This document shows, piece after piece, positions 2,901-60,607 of a DNA stretch of 64,000 bases. The notes beneath the pieces were generated by a model, which saw nothing but the letters and a program-made list of their open reading frames with translations, made no database searches and was not told where the DNA came from. The DNA comes from Yuukianura sp. NJ FZ-2021 (taxonomy: Eukaryota): assembly GCA_046563655.1 (NCBI GenBank), contig CM102285.1, positions 11,284,001 to 11,348,000 of the forward strand. Reading direction: 5' to 3'. Made by a program: the position numbers and the translations under genes. Each line of letters begins with the position of its first letter. Position 1 is the stretch's first letter.

Positions 2901-4439
2901 TTACCTTTCATCTTTCCAGTAGCAATTGGATGGTTCAGGTGAGTCTGGGTGGGGCGTTGCCTGGTTACCATGAGGCAGCCCACCACCTTCCCCTGCCGTT
3001 CGTACGTCTTTCACCGTCGAAGAGACAATTGGTTGTGACTGAGTCGGTGGCATAGAAATAGGCTCAGCTGTAAATTCAATTACCTTCGTACCAAGGTGGG
3101 AAGACAGGACTCCGCCTCCTCCATTATTGTTGACTCCACCTACCCCGTGGGGCCCCGTGATCAGATTGTTGTTGTGTACAACATTGTTGTTATTATTGTT
3201 TAGCTGGGAAGGATGAGACCTCCGTGGTGACATGTCGTACTTTCGCTGCTGCTTACATGTCATCGCTTGCAGCGTCTCCTTCAAGTAGATGTTTTCACTC
3301 CGAAGATTTTGGCAGTGGTCATTCAGACGCTGCAGTTCTCTCCGAATCCTCCGATTTTCTTCTTCCAAAGCCCTTCGCTGATCGACGCGTTTCATGCGAC
3401 AGTTTTGAGCATAACCACGATTTTTCAGCGTCCGTCTTTTTTGTTTGATTCGGGTGATTTCCGAACGATCCAGTCCGTGCAAAAGTTTGTTAAGGTCACG
3501 AACCGTCATATGCAGCAAATCTTTGTCGCTGATTCCACCCGGATTGGGCAAATGCGGTGTCCTCCGACCTTCAGAACTTTGATTTCGACTGTGGGATCGA
3601 ATCGAGTGCCCATGCGCATGAACGCCTTCAGCCATGTACAGTTGCGGTGAGTCCAGGCAAGGTCCGTACTCCTGTTTCCGGTGGATCCAATGACCACCGT
3701 CCTCCATACTGTCGGAACCCACAGAGCTGAGGTCAAGCGGATCTTGGTACCGGAGCTTGTCGTATCGTAGGTGTGGAATGACTCCATTTTGCATTCCATT
3801 GTCCATCCAAATCGGAATGTTCCTGTTCAAGTGACCTTCGTGATGTACTTGCTCAGGACATCTTTCTGGCGGTCCATTGGACATCAACGGAGTCCGAGCT
3901 TCCTGGAGACTGACGTTTCTGTACTCTGGAGACGAAGGCATCTGGGAACAATGGGTCGGTGACTGTTGTTCTGTTGGGGAACACGGACTCATGATCTTCA
4001 CAATTTGAAGTTGGTGACGAGCGTTTCCGTTGGGAATTGGCATAGTTTCTTCTGTCGGGGAGTACATGATTCCATTGTTGGCGACATTTTGGGGAAGCGA
4101 TTCTGGAAGGATGTGGTGGGACGGAGGTGGCCCACCGAGTCCCTCTTCGGAACTGTTGCTCGAATTGTTGTTGATAGAAACGCTTTGGAGTTGGTGATGA
4201 ATCAAATGATGTTGTTGTTGAGCGTGTTGCTGCTGTTGAATGTATGCAGCAGCAGCTTTACGCTGACGCTGATACTCGTTAAACTCATCCCCATTTCGAT
4301 TCTCCGTTTGACAAAGTTCAAGATTGAATTCGTTCAAGTATTCAACCCCCAGCCCTTCGTGATTATTCGGTTCAATTCCATGACCCATGCTTCTAACACC
4401 ACCAGCAGCAAGTCCACCGCGCATTTCTGAGAGAACCAT
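2901..4439 (-). CDS. tj: Large Maf bZIP transcription factor (traffic jam / MafA-MafB-c-Maf type), 512 aa, single coding exon
   Basis: ORF 2901..4490 with first ATG at 4439 (MVLSEMR...). Maf extended homology region and basic region [49 protein letters not shown], followed by a leucine zipper. The long N-terminus with a YLNEFNLE acidic motif, Gln/His tracts and S/T-P sites marks a large rather than small Maf. Confidence 0.93.
3121..3200 (-). repeat. Imperfect (AAC/AAT)n coding repeats giving poly-Asn tracts in Maf
   Basis: Plus strand ttgttgttattattgtt and similar; translates to [13 protein letters not shown] and VNNNGGGG. Confidence 0.7.
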
Positions 4440-5009
4440 CTTTTTAAACAAAACAAAAATTTCGAAATTAAAAAAAAAATGTAAAAGCATATTTCTCTCT
4501 CAAAAATATAGTACAAGGAGAAAGTTCGAAAAAAAAAAGTTACTAGAGATAAGCGGAATTGCTGTCCACTTTAAAGAGACAATTTATCGCCGTTACTTTA
4601 CTTAATTTAGCTAATGCTAATTTTTACTTTTGTGAATTTCTTACGTCACAAGTCCTTATCTCCGATGGTCCAGTTTTGCACATCAACAAAGTTGCTAATT
4701 TTTTTGAGATTTTGCAAAAATGTTTCACGGTACGACACAAAAAATTGGGCAAACTGTCTAGACTGTTGAACAACTTACAACTTTTTTTTACTGATGAATC
4801 TTCAGTCAGCACTGTCAGATTTTTGCAAACGAAGTGCAGACGCCTTACTTTTGAGTTTTTGCAAATGACACAATTTTGGCACAAAAGTGATTAACGGTGA
4901 GATGAAGACGACCAGAGTAGAAGTGGAAGTTGGTTAAGTTGGTTTTGGAGCTGTGAACGTCGTGGGTAGTAGAAATCGTTTGGTAAGGTTCTGTGTCCTG
5001 GCGGGTAGA

Positions 5010-12366: not shown

Positions 12367-13233
12367 CTACTTCTGTGATCCTTCAACGGCTAGCCGATCA
12401 GCTTCGATGTTTCCGTGTAAGCCGGAATGAGCAGGGACGTAAGACTAAAAACGAAAATGAGGAAGCTTAACAGTGGTTTTGGCAATTACTAACTTCTACG
12501 GGTTGAGTTTGTAGTGTTGGCTTACCCAATCAATTCTTATGCTTCTGGCGGCTGCGAATAGCTTTTCCAACTCCTCCCGATTTTTCACAGGTTTTCCACT
12601 GCTAAGTTTCCAGTTACTTCTTCGCCATAAATGAATCCATTTTGTCATGCAGTTGATTAGAAATTGGGAGTCCGTGTTCAACTGTAATTTTGTTATCCCT
12701 GTAAAACGAAAAGGAAAAGCAAAAGAATTGTGACAGGCGTTCACGTTCAAACAGTATTTGCGAATTTGCAGAAATAGTTAACATAGTATTTGATGTACCA
12801 GCTCGTTTTGCTACTAAAATCGCTCTCTCGGCCGCTTGAATTTCCGCAGAGTTATTCGTGTGACGTAGACCTTGAATTGGTTCCGAAATGTTCCTAAAAT
12901 GAGAATAATTTTATATGTACCTCAGTAATAGAAACCAAGAATTAGTGTCTAATCAAATAGCTTATCGTGGTGCACTGACATTGGATGCTGCTCTCCGAAC
13001 CAAACTCCAATACCCGCTTTGGCCGCTAACGTACCATTGGCTTTGCAGGCCCCATCAGTGAATGCGACAACATAGCCATCTTCATTTTTAGTAAAATTGA
13101 GTGTATTAGAGTCTCCGTCGGGAACAACTGCCTTGAAGCTTTCATTGGTGCTGTGATGCTTTGTCAACGATGCTCTTTTTTCGCCCAACGTGAGCCAGCG
13201 TCTACTCAAGGTTCGACCAAGAAATTGCAGCAT
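12367..13233 (-). CDS. rnh1: Ribonuclease H1-family protein, 199 aa; coding exons 13233-12980, 12893-12799, 12698-12526, 12444-12367
   Basis: All introns are GT-AG with consistent phases (2,1,0), giving a 600-nt CDS. Motifs: VAFTDGACKANG...AKAGIGVWFGEQHPMNISEP, TNNSAEIQA, NTDSQFLINCMTKWIHLWRRSNWKLSSGKPVKNRE, WSYVPAHSGLHGNIEADRLAVEG. The catalytic D-E-D-D and the His loop are intact. The start codon choice is less certain because the frame is open back to the acceptor at 13306. Confidence 0.9.
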
Positions 13234-13528
13234 CGTTTGGTTCGGTGTGTCGTTGTGTGGCGCGAACAATCTCCGACGAGGATTAGGCAAATTAGGAATG
13301 TCAGATCTAAAAACACAAAACAAAATGAGTTAGTTAAGTGCAAATAACACTTAAAAAAGTTACTAAACTTTCTTTCCAAATGTGAAACAAAATGTCTAGA
13401 TTTTTATCTCAAGGCACTCGATGCGTGAGGTGCACTACAAACAACGCTGTCAGGTTGAGTCACTTTCACAGGAAAATAGGGCAATGAGTGTACTGCGTAC
13501 GGTAATATCATTCATCCAGAAAACTATT

Positions 13529-13602
13529 TAGTTCATAAGTGGACGAACTGATTAGATATCCCCGAGCCCGAGTTTCGATATCTAATCATTGATGATGAAC
13601 TG
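13529..13602. repeat. Inverted repeat / hairpin (12-bp perfect stem plus outer stem)
   Basis: tgattagatatc (13549-13560) pairs with gatatctaatca (13577-13588) around a 16-nt loop containing cccgag twice. Outer agttcat/atgaact pairing at 13530-13536 and 13595-13601. Confidence 0.7.
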
Positions 13603-15023
13603 CAAAATAAAAAGGAAAAGTACCTATAAATGCTCACCACCACAAAGACAGAAAGGTGTGCGAATGCGAGTAATCTTGAACACAATGAGGGGAAAACAAT
13701 ATAATTATTATTGCATGTTTACAGCTGAATCTAAAGATTAGATTCTAATCTGATGGTGAAATCTAGAACGATGGCGTTGAAATTAATTTCTAATCATCTA
13801 ATCTGTCTTTACGTACTGATGAGGCCAGCAAAATCACGGAACTGTGTTTGTAAAATAACCTTATTTCATCCCCGTTTGAGTTGTATCAGGTCAACAGTGA
13901 TATTGTTTGTTCGCATACATTTTGCTCTATGATTCCCTGCTGGTACTGGTGTCTCCCTCCATATCGTCGCGGTGCAGCCTACAACAGAGAAAATTGACAG
14001 TGACTATGAGAGTTAGTGAAAGGAGAAATTGTACAACGTACCATGTAATCAGTGCTTTTGAAATTCCATTTACTTATTACATGTATTGGATGCTCCGTAA
14101 AATCCAGGGGCACACCAGCTTCGATCTCCAAAAATCGTAAACCTCGGTTAGCGGATATCCTCAATTACTTCAAGTAAGTGTTATTTTTGAAGATGATTAA
14201 TTTGACAGTTAAATGTTAAGTTTTGATTAATCAGCTGTGACTTCTTCGTGAATGAGTGATATTTCATTGCAATGTGATTTGTGCCAATGTAAACAAAACG
14301 GTTTTTCTCACAGTTCCTCACAAACCCCTTGCATAGGAAGTAAGCCCTGGGCATTGTTTCACTTTTTAAAATAAAATTCATATTTGTGTAGCATTAGGTC
14401 CCATATTAATTAGATTTGTTAAATTTAATTATTCTAAAAAAGATAACTGTTTTATTAGTTTTTTTAGTAATCATATTATACTTAAATTAATTAAATCATT
14501 AAAAAAAATTTTTATATTCTGCCCATATATGTCTGCAACTTGGGTGAAGTTAGAAGTAGCTGTTTCTAGAGTTTTGCGGAATTTAATTTTTAAAATTCGC
14601 GGTGAAGAGTTTGAAAAACGTTTTTCCGCCTTCATCCTCCTTGAGTGCGGTGGTTTTTCTTGACAGTAATCGAAAAAATAATTTAGTAATTCACATATTA
14701 AACTAAATTAAGTTAATCACACATTAAGTTAAGTGTAAATGACGGTGTTTGAAGCTTATTACAAGTGTTGTCGTTTTATTAACGTTGGATTAAACGGGAC
14801 CGTCATAGTTTTATTTTTCAGCCAAGGGAATGTGTAAACACTGGAAGTGACTCTCCGTGGAACCACGTGATCATTGTTGTGCTTCATCATTCGTATTTTT
14901 TTCAGCGAGAGCCATTTGTTTTTCATTGTTGCTCTTTGTTTACGTTAATCTTGCTCTCTTAATCATTCGCCAATCGATTTACTATTTCGACGTTAATCAC
15001 AAGTGAGAACACAAACACGACGA

Positions 15024-15117
15024 ATGTACGAGACATTAGAGCCAACGATTAGTCACCTAAGAAGTTCCAAAGTCGGTGCCATCAGTGATGATCTTCTAAT
15101 AAGAGGAGAAGGTAAAG
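15024..15117 (+). CDS. ush: Alternative first coding segment of ush (MYETLEPTISHLRSSKVGAISDDLLIRGEGK), NuRD-less isoform, 1365 aa if joined to 55601
   Basis: ATG at 15024 with an open frame to a strong donor AAG|GTAAGC at 15117/15118, phase 1 and compatible with the acceptor at 55600/55601. A second in-phase donor AAG|GTAAAG lies at 15111/15112. Confidence 0.55.
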
Positions 15118-16267
15118 GTAAGCCGTAAGGGTTAATTGAAGTCAAAATAGCCTCTAAGGACATCATCTTCCGTATCCGTTGTTGACAATTGACATAACGT
15201 TAGGATTCCGGAATGCTGAATGACTCGATCCCTGTTCCCTGCGCGTATTATATTCCGTTTTTCCATCCCCTTCTCAATCTCTCTCTCAAAGTGTCTTTCT
15301 CTTTCACTCGCCTCAGTCTTCGTCTGTAATCGTTACTGGCAACATCTTCTATACTGCTCTTAGCTCTGAACCGGCAAAAACGTGCTCACGATTAACAACA
15401 ATCATTGCGTAAGAAAGTGCTCTGTAATTTAATTTCTTTGTCCCTACAAATTAGCCGTGGTCTTAGATAGGTTGCCCTTGCCGTTTATTTTCTGACGAAG
15501 GAACGTCATCTTTTTAAAAATCGTTTTGTTGGAAAATGGAATTCGGTGTTAAGCATTGTATAGTATGTTGTAGTATTTCTGTAAATTAATTTGTTGTTTT
15601 CTTTTGTTTCTTGCAGTGCACAGAGTGAGGTGAGATGCAACAAAGCTGAATTCACCGAAACACATCACTACATCGACACCCAGATCCAACGCCTTCCAGC
15701 GTTCCAGCAACCAATAAACAGTTCCCCAATCATCAGTGTCATCAGTGACTCATCCGACACAAGACAACGGTACTTTTTTGATTATGTGAATTGAACTCAG
15801 TTCCTGAAGTGACAAGTCGTACACCTTTGGCGTGTTTCCCTTCCGAACAACACTAATTTACGTATCGGCACCTTTCTCACCACACCAAACCGCGAGCGTC
15901 TCCTTGCAAATTCAGGAAAACAGTATTGTGATCTTAATCTCTTGATCATAAACCTTCTGCGACGAGAGACAAAGGGGAGTTTCCGTTCTGAGAGACAACG
16001 AAGATAGGATCAAATCGATCCGAATAATTCAACAACAAAAGTGAAGTCTCTCATAAAGACTAGTGCAAGAGACACGCTGGTTCCGGGATGTGGATGTGCA
16101 AATACAATCATTATTATCCAAAACTAATAAACGTTGGACTATCTACGATCTTAATGACGAGGACGACGACGCCTTTGTAGCGATTAGCCAGCAGCGCTTA
16201 AATCAATACGACGAGGACACAATAGAACAAAGGAAGTCGACCAGAATTTAACAATCGCTCAACAAAA

Positions 16268-16307
16268 ATGTCACGACGGAAGCAGAGCAACCCGAAGCCT
16301 CTAAAAT
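16268..16307 (+). CDS. ush: ush coding micro-segment encoding the NuRD-binding motif MSRRKQSNPKPLK
   Basis: caaaaATG context, 13 codons plus T, then consensus donor GTAAGT at 16308. It lies at the 3' end of an exon with an acceptor ttttgtttcttgcag at 15616/15617. Confidence 0.9.
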
Positions 16308-19300
16308 GTAAGTACTACCGAATTTTAATTGATTCTTCAGCTTATGAGCTAAATCGCATTATTTTCTGTTTCTAATACTTAACGTTTAACGACTTTCATT
16401 GTTTAAATTCAATATTGCTTTGTTATTTCATGCTTCTTGCAAACGGGTTTAGTAGATTTAACTTTCGATTGATTTGATTATTCAATTCAAAAAATAAGTA
16501 TTGATTATGTTCCCATCCATAACGTTAACGCTACTGAAAGAGGTCATCCGATAACGACTCTTACATAAGCTTGTCTTTAAAAATCGCAATGAATGTCAAC
16601 TTTAAGATTTCTTGGCGACAAATCAGTTATTTTTGATACAAAATGACAAGTATACTATTTATTTCATTTTTTTTGTGTGTGTAAAAGCGCTCATGCTCAT
16701 GGCGCAATCTCAGTGAACGCAATTATAAAGAATTGTGTTTTCGCTTCATGTTTAATTAGCAAAACATTCGCACAAAAATTGTTGACAGTTGCAATAATTT
16801 TTTCTTGATTTTTGCTTGGGTTGAAGGGGGTGGGACATTTTATTCAGGAACAAAAGCAAAAGTTTAAAATCTCTCGCAACTGTACGTGTAAATGGCGTAA
16901 TATTCCCTCTAAGCGTAACCAATTTATAAGGTGCTTAATTACTTATCAGTGACTCTCATTCAGTCACCATCGTATTTCTGAAATGCTTGTTTATCTGTCA
17001 TGAGAAGTTTATACGTACTTATCACTTCCGTATTGTCAGTGATGCGATATGTATCAAGTATCTTTTGCACAAAAAATGCTGCTGCTCGTTTCGTCAGTAT
17101 GAGCACTGCCAACTAACAACAGTCAGTAGAGGCTAAAGTGTGTTAAGAGTTTAGTATTTTCTGGTAAGTTAAGTAGTGTTTGGTTTGGATTTTATCACAA
17201 AATGTATTTTATCTTCTGGGAGAGGTGGGCAGAGTGCCAAAAAAGATGAACGATAAGATCAGTTTGTATGAGAGAAAAAAAATCGCATTGTGGAATGAGA
17301 GATCACGAATTTTGTGGTGACTAAAAAGTATGCTTTTGCCGAATCTCTGGCGACGACAAATAACAAAAGAAATTATTTTTGGCAGGTTTGGGTTGACTTC
17401 CTCCCTCCAAATAGTTTAGATTGGCGAATAATTTTCTACGTTGATTTTACACTTATCACAGTTTTGGGTTAGGTTTTACAAGTTTCAGTAAATGTAGGAT
17501 TTGGTTTCGCTTGGGTTTAGATTTTTAACAAAAGATTGAAACTTGGATTATTATTTTGTGTCACTTTTGAGAGAAGGGGGAACTAAAAACTGCTTTTTTG
17601 GTTTTTAATTATAGGAACTAGACTGAAGGCTCTTATACAATTTTAAATTTTAGTTTGATAGAAAACTCTATCATTTAATTTAATTTGACATCTGATATGG
17701 TTGATATCGGGGTTCAGAATTCATTTGGAATTGAAACAAAAGCTAAATTTGACAATTGTGATGGCAGTGAACAATGGGACAGGTTCGTAACTCCTATCGT
17801 TTCCTATTGATATTTTGTTACATGAGACACATTTGCAAATTATCCCTCTCACTATTTCCCCCGAATTTACCGGTTTCCTTTATTTTTTAGAACTACAATT
17901 AACTTGACTTTAACTCATGTTTTTGTGGTTACTATCATCATCGAAAATCTATTGTTGTTGCATATTCTATCAGTTCCGAATCAACCTTGCGTTTGGCTTT
18001 GAAAAAACCCTGCTTTCGTAAACACTTCCTCACTTTAGTACTCTAATTTTCTGTTATTTTTCGAAATGGAGAAAACCTTGAAAAATTGGACAGGACAGAG
18101 ACGCACTAAAAGTCGAAATTCTGAATTGCAATCGCGTGACTCCTTGATTCAAGAGATATTCTCATGGAGGAGGAAAAATGAATTAATGTTATTTTTCTGT
18201 GGGACAGGCAAGGCTAAAGTTTCAAAAAAATTGTATAATCAGTGTTAAAAATCTTTTATAATACTAAAATATACATTACATAAAATACAAAGGCATTAGG
18301 CAAATATAGTAACTAGTGTGGAGAACAAAATGAAGCAAGTGACCACCACAGTGAAGTGAGTGAAAAGGAAATCACGTCTCATGATTTAGAGATTTGATTA
18401 CGTTAAGAAATGTTAAAATTCTAGATAATTACCGCAAATGAAACTTCGTTTTACCTTCATTTTTATGAAAGTTATCATTCTTTGGTATGGAAAAAAAAAG
18501 CATTTCCTTTCCTAGAATTTGACGAAAAACTGGATTTTGGGGAAAAAATGTGTTAAAAAAAAATTATAATTTTGACACACAACTGCCATAATTTTTGCTA
18601 AAGTTTGTTTCCATTCATGCGAATTGTCAGCTTACTTTTCCGATTTCAAGGATTTGAATACGGAAAATTTTCCAACTGGCGTGGAGGTTTTTAATTTTTG
18701 AAAGTGAAAAGTACGATGGACATTTAAAATCTTTATGTGAAAATTAAGTTTTCGTTCAACTTTTTTGTTTTGGCTGTGTTTAGGATTGAAATTTTGGCTT
18801 TTCTTTATGTCCTTGATTCCTTATGAATTTGAAATTGACATGTGCAGTTTATCACCTTCTGGCAACGTAGCAAAGTGCAGCGCAGAATTCACAGAAATAT
18901 CAAGTCTAAACCAGTGGATTGACGATAGGTTGGCATTAGGTAAGGCTTAATATTGTTTCATATTCCTTAATGTTCTTTTCCTATCGTGTGGATAAGGACA
19001 CATCATTTCTTTGAGCAGTGGTTTACCCGCAGATTAGTTATTAAGTGGCTCTTCATCAGTTGGCGGTGGTAAAGTGATATGCGGAACGAGGAAAACAGTA
19101 TTGGAAGTGATGCGGAGAATAATTTATTATGTAAGACGACAAAAAATATTAAGGGAATATCAAATTATGAAATGCTTTCGAAATCAGCTTTTCTCCCGAC
19201 TTCTTTCTTGTAATCATTTACTTGCTTTCTTTGTTTTCTCCTTCAAAATTTTTAATGTGTTTTGAACACAAAACCTCGCTGGATTCTTCTATTAATCAAA

Positions 19301-55300: not shown

Positions 55301-58300
55301 TTTCACTAAATTTCGAATTCTGACTTTTCTTGAGAATTTTTATTTTTAAACGGGATCAATATCTGGCAAAACTTGTGATATAAACAATTTTTCGAACAAT
55401 TCAACTTGTGAAAACTTTGTTAGTGAAAGTTAACCCCTCGTACTGTTGTTGTTGTTGTTGAGTATGCAGCTCATAAAGTTTAGATTTTCTTGCTTCGCTA
55501 AGTTGATATCGCTAGGTTACTTACAACGAACAGTTTCAAGTGAAAGCGAGATCTAGAGGCTAAAACAGTAACTTTCACTCTCTTTTTTTCTGGTTTACAG
55601 ACGAGGAGAACTGGAATGAAACTGAAGAGGGCGGTAAGAACGCCGAAGTCAAAGAGGAAGGAGAAAAGGACGCCGTGGATGGCTCTGCTTCACCACAACC
55701 TTCATCTTCAATCCTGAAGAATTCAGAAGATCGAGGAGAAGAGACAGATACGAATCCAGAAGAATCTGGAGATGAAGTTTCGTCTGGAAAAGGTGTAAAA
55801 CACACCAGGGGGTCAGAAGATGACAGGGATCTAGTCACTTTCGGAAATTCATTGGAAAAAGTTACAGCAAAGGAAGAGCCTGATGTCAAAATAAAATCCA
55901 CTTCGTCAAATTCTGGAAATGGCAGATCTGGTAAAGGAAAGCAAAAGCCTTCCACCACCTCCACCAAGACCCCTGATGAGGACCGAGGTCACATGTCACC
56001 CTTGTCATCATCAGCATCGGCTCACATGGGAAGTCGAAGAGACAGCCCAGGACCATCAGATTGTTCTAATGGCCCTCCAGATCAGCACTACTCTCATGAA
56101 CAATTAATTCAAGCAGGACTCCCCTACCTTCATTTACTACCACCATCAATCAGAAATGGTAATTTCCTGATACTTAATTACTCCTGATTATAATTTAATA
56201 ATTATTCCTCACAATCTAACTTGTCTTGTCATTACTGTCAGATGCTGCTCGATTTTTCTTCATGCCGCCGAACGTATCTCCAGAATTAACTGCTGCAGCA
56301 GTAGCGGCTCTGTCATCTGGGCCTTCTGCTGAAGCGTCACATTTTCAGCATAAAGGAAAGAAATTGCCACCAGAATCACCAGGACCCAGAGTTGGTAAGC
56401 TAAAAATGATAAACCAAAAATATGTTTCTGGGATTTGAATTTAAAATTTATACGCCGAGTTTCAAAAAATACTTATCGTTCATATTTCTCTTTGTTTTAA
56501 AATTGAGACAGAGAATTTTAATGAAGATTTTCTCTGCAGTCCAAAAATGGATGAAAAAATATTTGTTCAGGGGAACTTACATTTAATGAAGACGGGTAAA
56601 GAGGATGATCATAAAGTGAAAGTATGATTTCGCTTTGTGAAGTTTTTTTAAGATATCAAACTTCAAAGATAGTGCAAGAGGTTCTTGACTCTTTTTGCAC
56701 CAACTTTCTAGAGACTACTGTTCAAATAGTATGATGAAGATTACTAAAAATGCAATTTTATTAATTTGACAGGGCCTGTTTACATGTGTGAACCATGTAA
56801 TATAAAATTTAGCTCCTCCCGGACTCTGGAAGCTCATCAAACTTACTACTGCTCCTCGAGGAAAGAAATGGGTGAGTTAGTAGAGATATTTTAATAAAAC
56901 ATTCTTTCCATTTTCCCATCTCTCTATCATGTTCGGGTGGCTGGAAGAATTTTCACGTTCTCTGGAGAACTGTTGAAAAGGCAAATTGAGAGATCAAGGC
57001 AGAAGAGGCCAAAAAGTCTGCTCCTTTGTTTCTGTTACATTTTATATGACGAAAGTAAAAGTCTCTGTTAAGTTTTTGTTATCCAAGAAAATAAGCGTGA
57101 AAAGAATTTGTCTTGAAAAGCCCCCTAAAACTTTTATTCTACGGCATAGCAAACGCGAGGCGAAAATTGTGTTCAAAATTTTCTGTGAGAAACTTTTCTA
57201 AATGTTTTTCAAACTTTGCTTTTTCACGCAAATTTGAAACGGAAGTCGTGAATTTTAATTTTTGCAATTTTTGCAAGAAATCAATAAAATCTCAGTGGGG
57301 GAATTTTTTGAATTAACATCGCTTGGAAGACTTATGAATGTTAGGTAATAGCCTAAATTGCAAGCGGAAGATGCTACTAAATTAACTAATTGATGTTTTC
57401 CTTTTTACTTTAGCAGAAAAGGAAGTTGTAGAACCCAAAGGAGAAAATGGAGATGAAGATTTACGGAACGAGAGTCGAGATACTCCTTCTGTAGGATCTG
57501 CTAACGGGAGAAAGCGGGAAAGAGACAGTTCTGGCGAAGAGCACGAATTGTACATTGATGAAAACGCTTCTGGAAAGACGGCCGAAGGAGTTTGCACTTC
57601 CGGCGGAAATGCTGGCAGTACAACTTTGCCTACCCCACCGAAGAATGTTAAGACTGGGAAGTTGTACTCTTGTAGCTACTGCAGTTACAGCGCCGACAAG
57701 AAGGTCAGCCTTAATCGCCACATGAGGATGCATTCTGGAGGTCAACCGACCGGAACCAACGGAAATGGGAATTTAAATGGAGAATTAGGCGTGACCTCTT
57801 CAAACAACGCTCCCGGGTCGGCAGTTCCAGGACGAAGTACAGCAGAAGGCATTACGGCTGCAGATCGATACTGTTTCGACTGTGAAATTCAATTTACATC
57901 GCTCAAAACTTACAAAGTTCACAAGCAGTACTACTGTAGTACTCGGCATGTCATGAAAGCAGCACAACTGGGAAATGTAAAAGTCGGTGGGACTGACATG
58001 TCAGTCAAGTCAACTGGTGCACCGTCTCCACATCGTTCATTAACTCCTGGACTAAAAGTATCTTGTGCAGGATCCCCAGTCACTCCAGAAGGAAGTCCCG
58101 TTCCTATTGGATCTCCGATCCCACCGCCGCCATTTGTCGTTCTCCCTACGAATCCTGTAATCATCGTTCCATATTGCTTCATCCAAGGCGCTAGCGTCGT
58201 TCCACCAAATTTACTACCAAGTACGAATGCCCTAATCATTTTGCCGAATGGAGCTGTTCAGAGTCTGCCAGGAACTACGATGCCAATTTCCATGTCGTTC

Positions 58301-60607
58301 CCATCGCCAAGCGGCCCGTTAGGCGGAGCGCCTATGAACTTGGGCCAATATGGACTGGCTGATATGTCTCCCGGAAGTACTACAAATCCAACTAATCTCT
58401 CCCCTCCTGGTCAGCATTCCATTTTTAATGATCCAAAGGATGTCATCAGACGGATCTGCGGAGGTACAAAGAATTCATCGCCCTCTGGGGATACAGTCAT
58501 TTTAGAAACAGGCCCCCATAGAAGTCAAAGGAGTAGCATCAGTGAAAAAGACGGAAGCGACTCTGTAGTGGAAATGGAGGGGTGTGAACGCAGTGGTGAG
58601 GAAAGCATTCCAGCCATTGATCTCACTCTTAGAAATTTCATCAAAAAAGAAGTCGAAGAGGAGGATGAAAAGGAGAATCAAGATGCAGGGCACCGTCGCT
58701 TACATGGAACCCAAAGTCATTTATTTCCACAAGGATCATGTACTGGCGGAAGTCGACAGCGAAATGAACCTGGAGTAATTGCTAGTCAGAGTGACGAATT
58801 GAGACATGAAAGCACCGCTGGAAACAGCCCGTCACGCCAGTCTCATTGTAGTTCTGCCAGTACACACAGTGGACGCCGCACTCCGCGCCCACCTTCAATC
58901 AGTAGCTCTTGTTCCAGCTCTCCAGCTCCTATTTACAATTCGGAACATAAACACAATGGACTCAAATCAAGTCGGCCCCCTGGAATTAATTCACACTCTT
59001 ATCCGACACCTTTGCCATTACATTCAGAAGGTTACCCTAACGGATCAAGGCAAATGATGAAAAAAGGTGATCATGGAATTCTCGTAAATAAATTACGAGG
59101 TGGAACAGAGAAAATGAGTCCCATTACCACTCAGCTCCCTGGAGGTGCAATTCTCACTACGTCAAGTAATCAAAGCCTCGCGGAGTTATTGATGTCTAAC
59201 CCACCAGAACTTACGGAGAGTTTGGCCAAGTTGAATTCTCATCTCATAATGAATCCTGGACCGCCTGGACTACCTCCACAATTTGATCCAGCCACGATGA
59301 TGGCGGCAGCGTCTTCTCTTCCAGCAGATTTAGCAATGACTTACTTGGCCAACATTCAGCATTCCTTTCAACAACAACAACAGCATCACCATCAACTCCA
59401 ACAGGCCGCTAAGCACCAGCAGCAACAGCATCAAGCGACAATGAAACGAGGGGTTTGGAAATGCGTTGACTGTGAAATTGTTTTCTACAAACAAGAGAAT
59501 TTTTTAGTCCATAAAGAGCAGTACTGCGCTTTCTCTAGGTCAACTGGGAATGGCAATGAAGGGAAAGCGAACACCAGCGGCACAAAAGAAAATAACAGTC
59601 AACAGCAGAGCCAGCGAGGATTCAAATCCAAGGAAAGTCAAATATCAAAGTCAGAAGTCATTGTTTCCCGCAGCTCTTCGTCTCAAGGAGAAAGGAGTTC
59701 TCCGCCCCTGGTTTCAAGAAGATCCAATGCTCAACTTCATTCTTCGTCGTCTACAGAAATGAATCCCAGCTCTAGCTCATGTCCTACGAAATCTCCAGCG
59801 CCCGATACAAAGGCTCAAGTTGAAGAGAGTCAATTTAGAATTAAGGCAGAGTCACCCGCCTCGTCTCTCGCATCTCCAGTTCCACATGGAAGTCCAGCGT
59901 CACGGACTGCCACTCCTAACCATATCAAGGTCGAAATGCCAACTTCCACTCAGAGTCCACCGACTCAATACTTATGCCAAAAATGTGGAGTCAAATATAG
60001 CACTTTGGACAATCTGACTACACACCAGACGTTCTACTGTAACAAACGACCTACGGCTCCAGACCAAGCCAGCGGACCTTCCCCGCCGATTGCTCTCCCA
60101 CCAAGGAAATCTAGCCCACCGAATTCCAGCGTTTTGGAAAAATCATTATGTTCTATCGACGGAAGTGGATTCACGAGGTGTGGAAGATGTAATTTGGCTA
60201 TACCTGATGAGCAAATGGCTTTGCATCAACCAGTATGCCATGGACAAACAAATGGGAGTCAACATCTTCCAGGAAGTGGGCCCTCGGCTTCGTCGAGTAG
60301 TTCTGGCTGGAAGTGTCCTTGCTGTGATACCTACAGTCCCACAATGTCAGCCGCTCAGAAGCATCTGGAGACACATACAGGGATCAGAGCCTTCAAGTGC
60401 GTCATCTGTGGATACCGTGGAAATACGCTTAGAGGAATGAGGACGCACATCAGAATGCATTTTGACAAAAGGTTTTCGGATCTCCAGGAAGGAGACTATA
60501 TCTCCTGCATCACGGCCACGGATCTGGAGCCTGTCGGACAACCGCAGTCGCCGCACTCATCAATCACGACTCCTGGAACTGTCAACGGAGCTTTAAATGT
60601 GACTTGA
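16268..60607 (+). CDS. ush: u-shaped / Friend of GATA (FOG, ZFPM family), NuRD-motif isoform, 1347 aa; coding exons 16268-16307, 55601-56158, 56242-56394, 56773-56871, 57414-60607
   Basis: N-terminus MSRRKQSNPKPLK is the FOG/SALL/BCL11 NuRD-binding motif. All introns are GT-AG and phase 1, giving a 4044-nt CDS. FOG-type CCHC fingers (CEPCNIKFSSSRTLEAHQTYYC, CFDCEIQFTSLKTYKVHKQYYC, CVDCEIVFYKQENFLVHKEQYC, CQKCGVKYSTLDNLTTHQTFYC), C2H2 fingers (CSYCSYSADKKVSLNRHMRMH, CPCCDTYSPTMSAAQKHLETH, CVICGYRGNTLRGMRTHIRMH) and a CtBP-type AIDLT motif. Confidence 0.9.
16942..17460. promoter_or_regulatory. GATA-site cluster just 3' of the NuRD-motif exon (candidate enhancer)
   Basis: TTATCW at about 16943, 16991, 17019, 17192, 17209 and 17453, all in the same orientation, plus CGATAA at 17251. 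Confidence 0.4.
47945..48313. promoter_or_regulatory. GATA-site cluster (candidate enhancer)
   Basis: WGATAR at 48069, 48080, 48110, 48142, 48259 and 48308 (+), TTATCA at 47945, CGATAR at 48044 and 48166. Confidence 0.45.
53201..53230. repeat. 3 x 10-bp tandem repeat
   Basis: caaaatgact tgaaatgact caaaatgact; contains TGACTCA at 53216-53222. Confidence 0.7.
55601..56158 (+). CDS. ush: ush internal coding exon (acidic, Ser-rich)
   Basis: Acceptor ctctctttttttctggtttacag, donor G|GTAATT, in frame with ORF 55675..56187. Confidence 0.88.
56242..56394 (+). CDS. ush: ush internal coding exon
   Basis: Acceptor ttactgtcag, donor G|GTAAGC, 153 nt, in frame with ORF 56226..56438. Confidence 0.85.
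56773..56871 (+). CDS. ush: ush exon encoding the first CCHC FOG finger
   Basis: Acceptor tttgacag, donor G|GTGAGT, 99 nt, translating to GPVYMCEPCNIKFSSSRTLEAHQTYYCSSRKEM. Too short for the ORF track. Confidence 0.92.
57414..60607 (+). CDS. ush: ush large terminal coding exon (7 finger-like motifs, AIDLT motif, poly-Gln)
   Basis: Tandem acceptor tttactttag|cag| (start at 57414 or 57417), in frame with the 1019-aa ORF 57548..60607, stop TGA. Confidence 0.93.

Follow-up and report, generated by a model that had tools for sequence, protein, structure and literature searches.

The u-shaped locus and its neighbours

The stretch of DNA analysed here (64 kb, hereafter the window) holds, as read from its sequence, the 5′ end of a u-shaped (ush)/FOG orthologue of a springtail-like hexapod. 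The large zinc-finger exon of this gene lies on the + strand within the open frame 57386–60607. A protein search with this frame returned 140 homologues at E ≤ 0.001, and the homologue counts given below are drawn from the best 120 of these 140. Among the best 120, homologues that carry names are mostly called ‘zinc finger protein ush’; the closest named homologues among the matches listed are those of the springtails Orchesella and Folsomia, with 36–41% identity, and two further homologues of the best 120 reach 62–66% identity. In the translation of 57416–60604, Pfam finds PF25445 CCHC_ZFPM2 (E 1.3e-11, two stretches) and PF00096 zf-C2H2 (E 4.4e-11). The frame thus carries both the ZFPM-type CCHC and the C2H2 fingers of the FOG/u-shaped (ZFPM) cofactors, and the protein search places it as an orthologue of named Ush proteins.

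Two smaller coding exons precede the zinc-finger exon on the same strand. Exon 3 (55601–56158), which we call the common exon, opens with the last two bases of a split codon followed by EENWNE... and ends with ...PPSIRN plus 1 nt, after which comes GT. It matches the relatives P0123 (E 2e-29) and P0124 (E 2e-19), and its junction motif recurs in insect proteins. Exon 4 (56242–56394) starts with DAARFFFMPPNVSPEL..., and the same residues are found in P0123, P0005 and P0008. Both exons also match springtail models, and the closest relatives, represented by P0003, P0004, P0123 and P0124, have 49–66% identity to the window in the exons. When exon 3 was searched against 1.84 billion representatives, three matches were obtained, all of them genomic open frames without an upstream exon, and they are therefore uninformative on the N-termini used in close relatives.

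Exon 3 is separated from the nearest coding exon upstream by an intron of 39.3 kb (16308–55600, + strand), in which G exceeds C on the + strand over the whole length, with a GC skew of 0.08–0.31 per 2-kb bin between 18000 and 54000, and T exceeds A in most 2-kb bins of the same span. The asymmetry declines near 16 kb and 56 kb. This is consistent with a transcription-linked strand bias that approximately delimits the transcribed span.

On the opposite strand to ush, a 532-codon open frame (2901–4499, − strand) matches Pfam bZIP_Maf (E 8e-22); it codes for a bZIP protein of the large-Maf type and represents a neighbouring transcription-factor gene. Closer to ush, short open frames at 12614–13329 (− strand) resemble pieces of a ribonuclease H-type gene by eye; Pfam gave no match for the pieces 12949–13329 and 12614–12910. 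If this gene is real, its 5′ end faces the ush 5′ region and would limit the position of a distal ush promoter. Rfam returned no matches in 13000–18000. The segment 14700–16400 is unique in the window, with no match other than itself on self-comparison.

The NuRD-motif exon and its junction to the common exon

The initial annotation had proposed that two start segments, 15024–15117 and 16268–16307, can each splice in frame to 55601, and frames and coordinates confirm this. Both segments end in phase 1, and the common acceptor at 55600/55601 reads ...GGTTTACAG/AC, so that the split codon becomes G+AC (Asp) from the first segment and T+AC (Tyr) from the second. The second segment is the coding part of exon 2 (+ strand). 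Its ATG at 16268 opens the 13 codons of 16268–16306, translated as MSRRKQSNPKPLK, followed by 1 nt and the donor AAAT/GTAAGT after 16307, just as had been claimed. The start codon lies in the context CAAAATG, which we take to be a favoured arthropod start context.

Conservation of this exon was assessed in metagenomes and in homologous proteins. A pattern back-translated from the 13 motif residues recovered 13 metagenome contigs, and in all 13 loci the motif codons are followed by 1 nt and then by GT. The 13 residues are identical to those of insect Ush proteins. MSRRKQ[SL]NPKP occurs within the first 40 residues in 35 of the best 120 homologues (of 140) and begins at residue 1 in 30 of the same 120; the window likewise has MSRRKQ..P, the N-terminal FOG repression (NuRD-binding) motif, at residue 1. 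Directly after the split codon comes an acidic stretch with a tryptophan, EDEEW in insects and EENW here; the EENW of exon 3 is how this acidic-W junction of insect Ush proteins looks in springtails.

We regard the 13-codon exon with its phase-1 donor as real. Because both the end of the motif exon and the acidic-W junction are conserved, we accept the junction 16307>55601 and take the NuRD-motif isoform as established by homology. Exon 16268–16307 provides the N-terminal FOG repression motif, joined to 55601 over the 39-kb intron, and this phase-1 junction, conserved in the metagenome contigs and insect proteins compared, gives the protein predicted to bind NuRD. NuRD binding is here predicted by motif identity. 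For Drosophila Ush-B and for FOG1, binding to NuRD and to GATA factors has been shown (PMC7891773, PMC2785561).

The region upstream of the motif exon

A strong acceptor had been claimed at 15616/15617, and one is found there: ...TTTCTTGCAG/TGCACAG, with 17 of 20 pyrimidines and CAG. If a strong site is defined by YAG and 17 or more pyrimidines out of 20, there are 19 of them on the + strand across the 64 kb (0.30 per kb), and 15118–16268 contains two, 15617 and 15317. The acceptor coincides with an abrupt change in composition. From 15500–15599 to 15600–15699, GC rises from 0.28 to 0.47 and (A+C)−(G+T) from −0.32 to +0.16. Downstream of it, the block 15617–16307 has a GC of 0.44 with A>T and C>G, like exon 3 and unlike either flank. 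In composition, 15617–16307 thus looks like an exon whose 5′ border, near 15600, is sharp, and at 0.30 such sites per kb a strong acceptor is unlikely to fall exactly on that border by chance. The 5′ leader within exon 2 (15617–16267, + strand) measures 651 nt, in agreement with the earlier estimate that the MSRRKQ ATG lies about 650 nt into the exon. Ahead of it, 15118–15616 (+ strand) is T-rich and would form a putative intron 1 of 499 nt, with its pyrimidine tract before the terminal CAG. Within this putative intron, a second acceptor-like site at 15316/15317 (window positions 15294–15317) has 18 of 20 pyrimidines, reads CAG/TCTTCG and sits in a CT-rich stretch; it may represent an alternative acceptor, or an initiator-like start when taken as TCAGTC.

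The acceptor and the composition edge could also mark the edge of a promoter. The core CAGT at 15614–15617 resembles what we take to be an arthropod initiator, and the edge at about 15600 is also compatible with a transcription start. A rival reading has two promoters with alternative first exons, in which exon 1 (to 15117) splices solely to 55601 and exon 2 starts near 15600, leaving the acceptor-like site unused. Alternative promoters belong to the Drosophila ush gene model (PMC7891773). In addition, 12 of the 13 other metagenome loci show no acceptor-like site with 16 or more of 20 pyrimidines within the 1.5 kb or less of upstream sequence that they offer. Other lineages may thus have the motif exon as their first exon, and its internal placement does not appear to be general. 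However, 17 of 20 pyrimidines plus CAG exactly at a composition edge would be an improbable coincidence for an unused site. Inspection by eye near 14890, 15315 and 15615 found no convincing set of core-promoter motifs (initiator, TATA, DPE), an observation given no weight in either direction. We consider the arrangement with two promoters very unlikely. Comparison of the 13 metagenome loci with positions 14000–17500 of the window (blastn, tblastx) gave, beyond the 13-codon exon, just short pieces at chance level. The first 60 residues of all homologues but P0002 were also compared with these loci, and no alternative N-terminus was found among them; there were just two non-motif matches, at E about 0.06.

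For a leader exon ahead of the acceptor at 15617, the first of the two start segments is the candidate. As claimed, its ATG at 15024–15026 opens a frame starting MYETLE..., which runs for 94 nt to 15117 (31 codons, phase 1) and would form the putative 3′ part of exon 1 (+ strand); an in-frame TAA lies upstream at 14994. The donor after 15117, AAG/GTAAGC, has 8 of 9 consensus matches, and a tandem donor after 15111 (AAG/GTAAAG), 6 nt before it, is also in phase 1. Use of the latter would remove two codons of the MYETLE frame and leave the junction codon unchanged. Neither strand of the exon 1 and leader region holds a longer open frame.

These features may also be fortuitous, with the 15117 donor and the 31-codon frame being chance features between the upstream genes and ush, and with exon 2 either the first exon or fed from elsewhere, for example from a donor at 14173. 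Donors that fit the consensus at 8 or more of 9 positions number 17 in the 64 kb (0.27 per kb), among them 15117 and 16307, and the one at 14173 is as good as 15117. Open ATG frames ahead of donors are common as well: between 13400 and 55560, 66 donor-like sites have at least 7 of 9 consensus matches, and 15 of the 66, about 1 in 4, are preceded by an ATG-opened phase-1 frame. No homology was seen, either in the 13 metagenome loci or among public proteins of 71–2000 residues, in which the 40-residue in-frame stretch 14997–15116 gave 12 word-sharing candidates and none at E ≤ 10, a result that is weak evidence. On the other hand, the + strand of the window has just two copies of AG/GTAAG, of which one is at 15117, 500 nt before the strong acceptor; the composition, moreover, is exon-like from about 15000 on (15000–15117). 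A spurious exon 1 is somewhat unlikely in our judgement. The donor-like site at 14173, CAA/GTAAGT with 8 of 9 matches, precedes the MYETLE start by about 0.85 kb; a ush leader exon farther upstream could end there, or an unrelated transcript could.

For a leader exon joined to exon 2, the splice-site strength and composition make the upstream part (exon 1 and the acceptor at 15617) plausible, and we consider use of the junction 15117>15617 slightly more probable than its absence. On this joining the MYETLE frame would read on as VHRVR and end at TGA 15631–15633, which bears out the earlier description of a 36-codon uORF. The exon 2 leader holds five ATGs of its own, at 15635, 15784, 16088, 16094 and 16154, which open four short frames. 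With the leader taken as 15617–16267, the motif start would stand behind these five upstream ATGs in four frames, and joining of exon 1 would add the 36-codon frame from 15024.

This bears on the model put forward initially, in which a single ush promoter upstream of 15024 serves both forms and exon 2 (15617–16307) is a 691-nt cassette. Its inclusion would add the NuRD-binding N-terminus and make a 36-codon uORF of the alternative protein start, its skipping would give a MYETLE-started Ush without the motif, and one splicing decision would set both cofactor choice and translational yield. All splice sites that the model requires exist, are strong and are in phase. Moreover, 38 of the best 120 homologues (of 140) reach the acidic-W junction behind a different, unconserved N-terminus, including models of several insect orders that RefSeq names ‘isoform X’; some of the motif-less models are genomic read-through of the acceptor and carry no weight as isoforms. 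Against this, the in-frame fit of the MYETLE ATG to 55601 is at chance level. We place little weight on it because 15 of the 66 donor-like sites qualify by chance, and a motif-less protein could just as well start from 12 further segments of the same span, not counting those of the two MYETLE donors and of the MSRRKQ exon. The context of ATG 15024 is poor, with C at −3, and the MYETLE peptide has no match among the public proteins searched. Nor is the uORF coupling specific: given the five leader ATGs, the NuRD-motif mRNA would be under uORF influence with or without exon 1. The coupling is thus weaker than proposed, the five leader ATGs being present whatever exon precedes them. We rate the cassette model as improbable, and use of the skipping junction 15117>55601, taken by itself, as doubtful. 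The parallel with insects makes it possible that the leader exon sometimes bypasses exon 2 and so yields a motif-less protein.

Of the single readings, the likeliest has a leader exon followed by a 5′-UTR intron of 499 nt and a long uORF-rich leader ahead of the conserved NuRD-motif start; as an overall explanation, a motif exon with a putative leader exon ahead and a uORF-rich leader has, we believe, about an even chance of being right. In this arrangement exon 2 most probably begins at the acceptor 15617, with a short leader exon ahead of it whose donor is at 15117 (or 15111). In the main mRNA, ATG 15024 would open the 36-codon uORF, followed by the four further short frames of the 651-nt leader, and ribosomes would get to the optimal-context ATG 16268 through leaky scanning and reinitiation. 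Of the initial interpretation as a whole, the u-shaped/FOG identity, the conserved MSRRKQ exon and the strong splice sites hold up. A single promoter for both forms, skipping of exon 2 and translation of MYETLE are hypothetical, the in-frame fit does not go beyond chance, and the uORF coupling is not specific.

Ush and FOG isoforms with and without the NuRD motif

Drosophila ush has alternative 5′ exons and promoters and gives three proteins, Ush-A, Ush-B and Ush-D, whose differences are confined to short N-termini (Lenz et al. 2021, PMC7891773). Ush-B alone binds dNuRD, its first nine residues being the FOG repression motif, which Ush-A and Ush-D lack (PMC7891773). The background on which the initial annotation drew, including Drosophila Ush isoforms with and without the NuRD motif, is correct. 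The window resembles this system in belonging to the same gene family, in carrying the N-terminal motif on a short 5′ exon, with MSRRKQSNPKPL identical here, and in a junction into the common exon that corresponds to that of insect Ush proteins. A pair of the Ush-A/Ush-B type would call for a second 5′ exon that joins the common exon in phase and bypasses the motif exon; segment 15024–15117 could do this, and so could the 12 other ATG-opened segments. The window differs from the Drosophila case in that the isoforms here are deduced from genomic sequence, and the putative MYETLE... start peptide is unrelated to that of Ush-A; the common exon lies behind an intron of 39 kb in the window.

The RefSeq models named ‘zinc finger protein ush isoform X1/X2/X3’ offer a broader comparison. 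Among the best 120 of 140 homologues, the 35 with the motif near the start stand beside the 38 with another short, lineage-specific N-terminus, and the split codon falls at the same place as in the window. These are mostly computed gene models. In beetles, the models P0030 and P0034 have motif-bearing and motif-less N-termini that both continue with DPHEKLPLDFR... before the acidic-W junction; this suggests that in beetles a further small exon, absent from the window, separates the motif exon from the common one.

In mammals the same outcome is reached differently. In mouse, leaky scanning to an internal ATG of the same FOG1 (ZFPM1) mRNA gives rise to the NuRD-less FOG1S, and the FOG1 5′-UTR contains a conserved upstream ORF (Snow and Orkin 2009, PMC2785561). 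The likeness to mouse and human FOG1L and FOG1S lies in NuRD-binding and NuRD-less forms from one gene, the pair in the window being putative. The difference is that the short form of FOG1 starts at an internal ATG and does not arise by exon skipping as proposed here; in the window, the first in-frame internal Met comes about 150 codons into exon 3.

A NuRD isoform switch has been shown in Drosophila blood-cell development (PMC7891773) and, by a different route, for mouse FOG1 (PMC2785561), so that a NuRD switch through the choice of N-terminal isoform with a uORF-bearing leader is already published. As matters stand, this is the 5′ end of a developmental regulator gene, well conserved, organised in the ordinary way and with a long leader rich in uORFs; whichever reading holds, the locus is a probable springtail-type counterpart of the Ush-A/Ush-B arrangement. 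If both forms are made here, the recruitment of NuRD by particular Ush/FOG isoforms would go back beyond the insects: this layout, present in a springtail-like animal, would point to a pair of Ush forms with and without NuRD binding that predates them. The NuRD switch would then have been reached by at least three mechanisms, namely alternative promoters, exon skipping and internal initiation, and the presence of both forms would be a modest extension of known biology.
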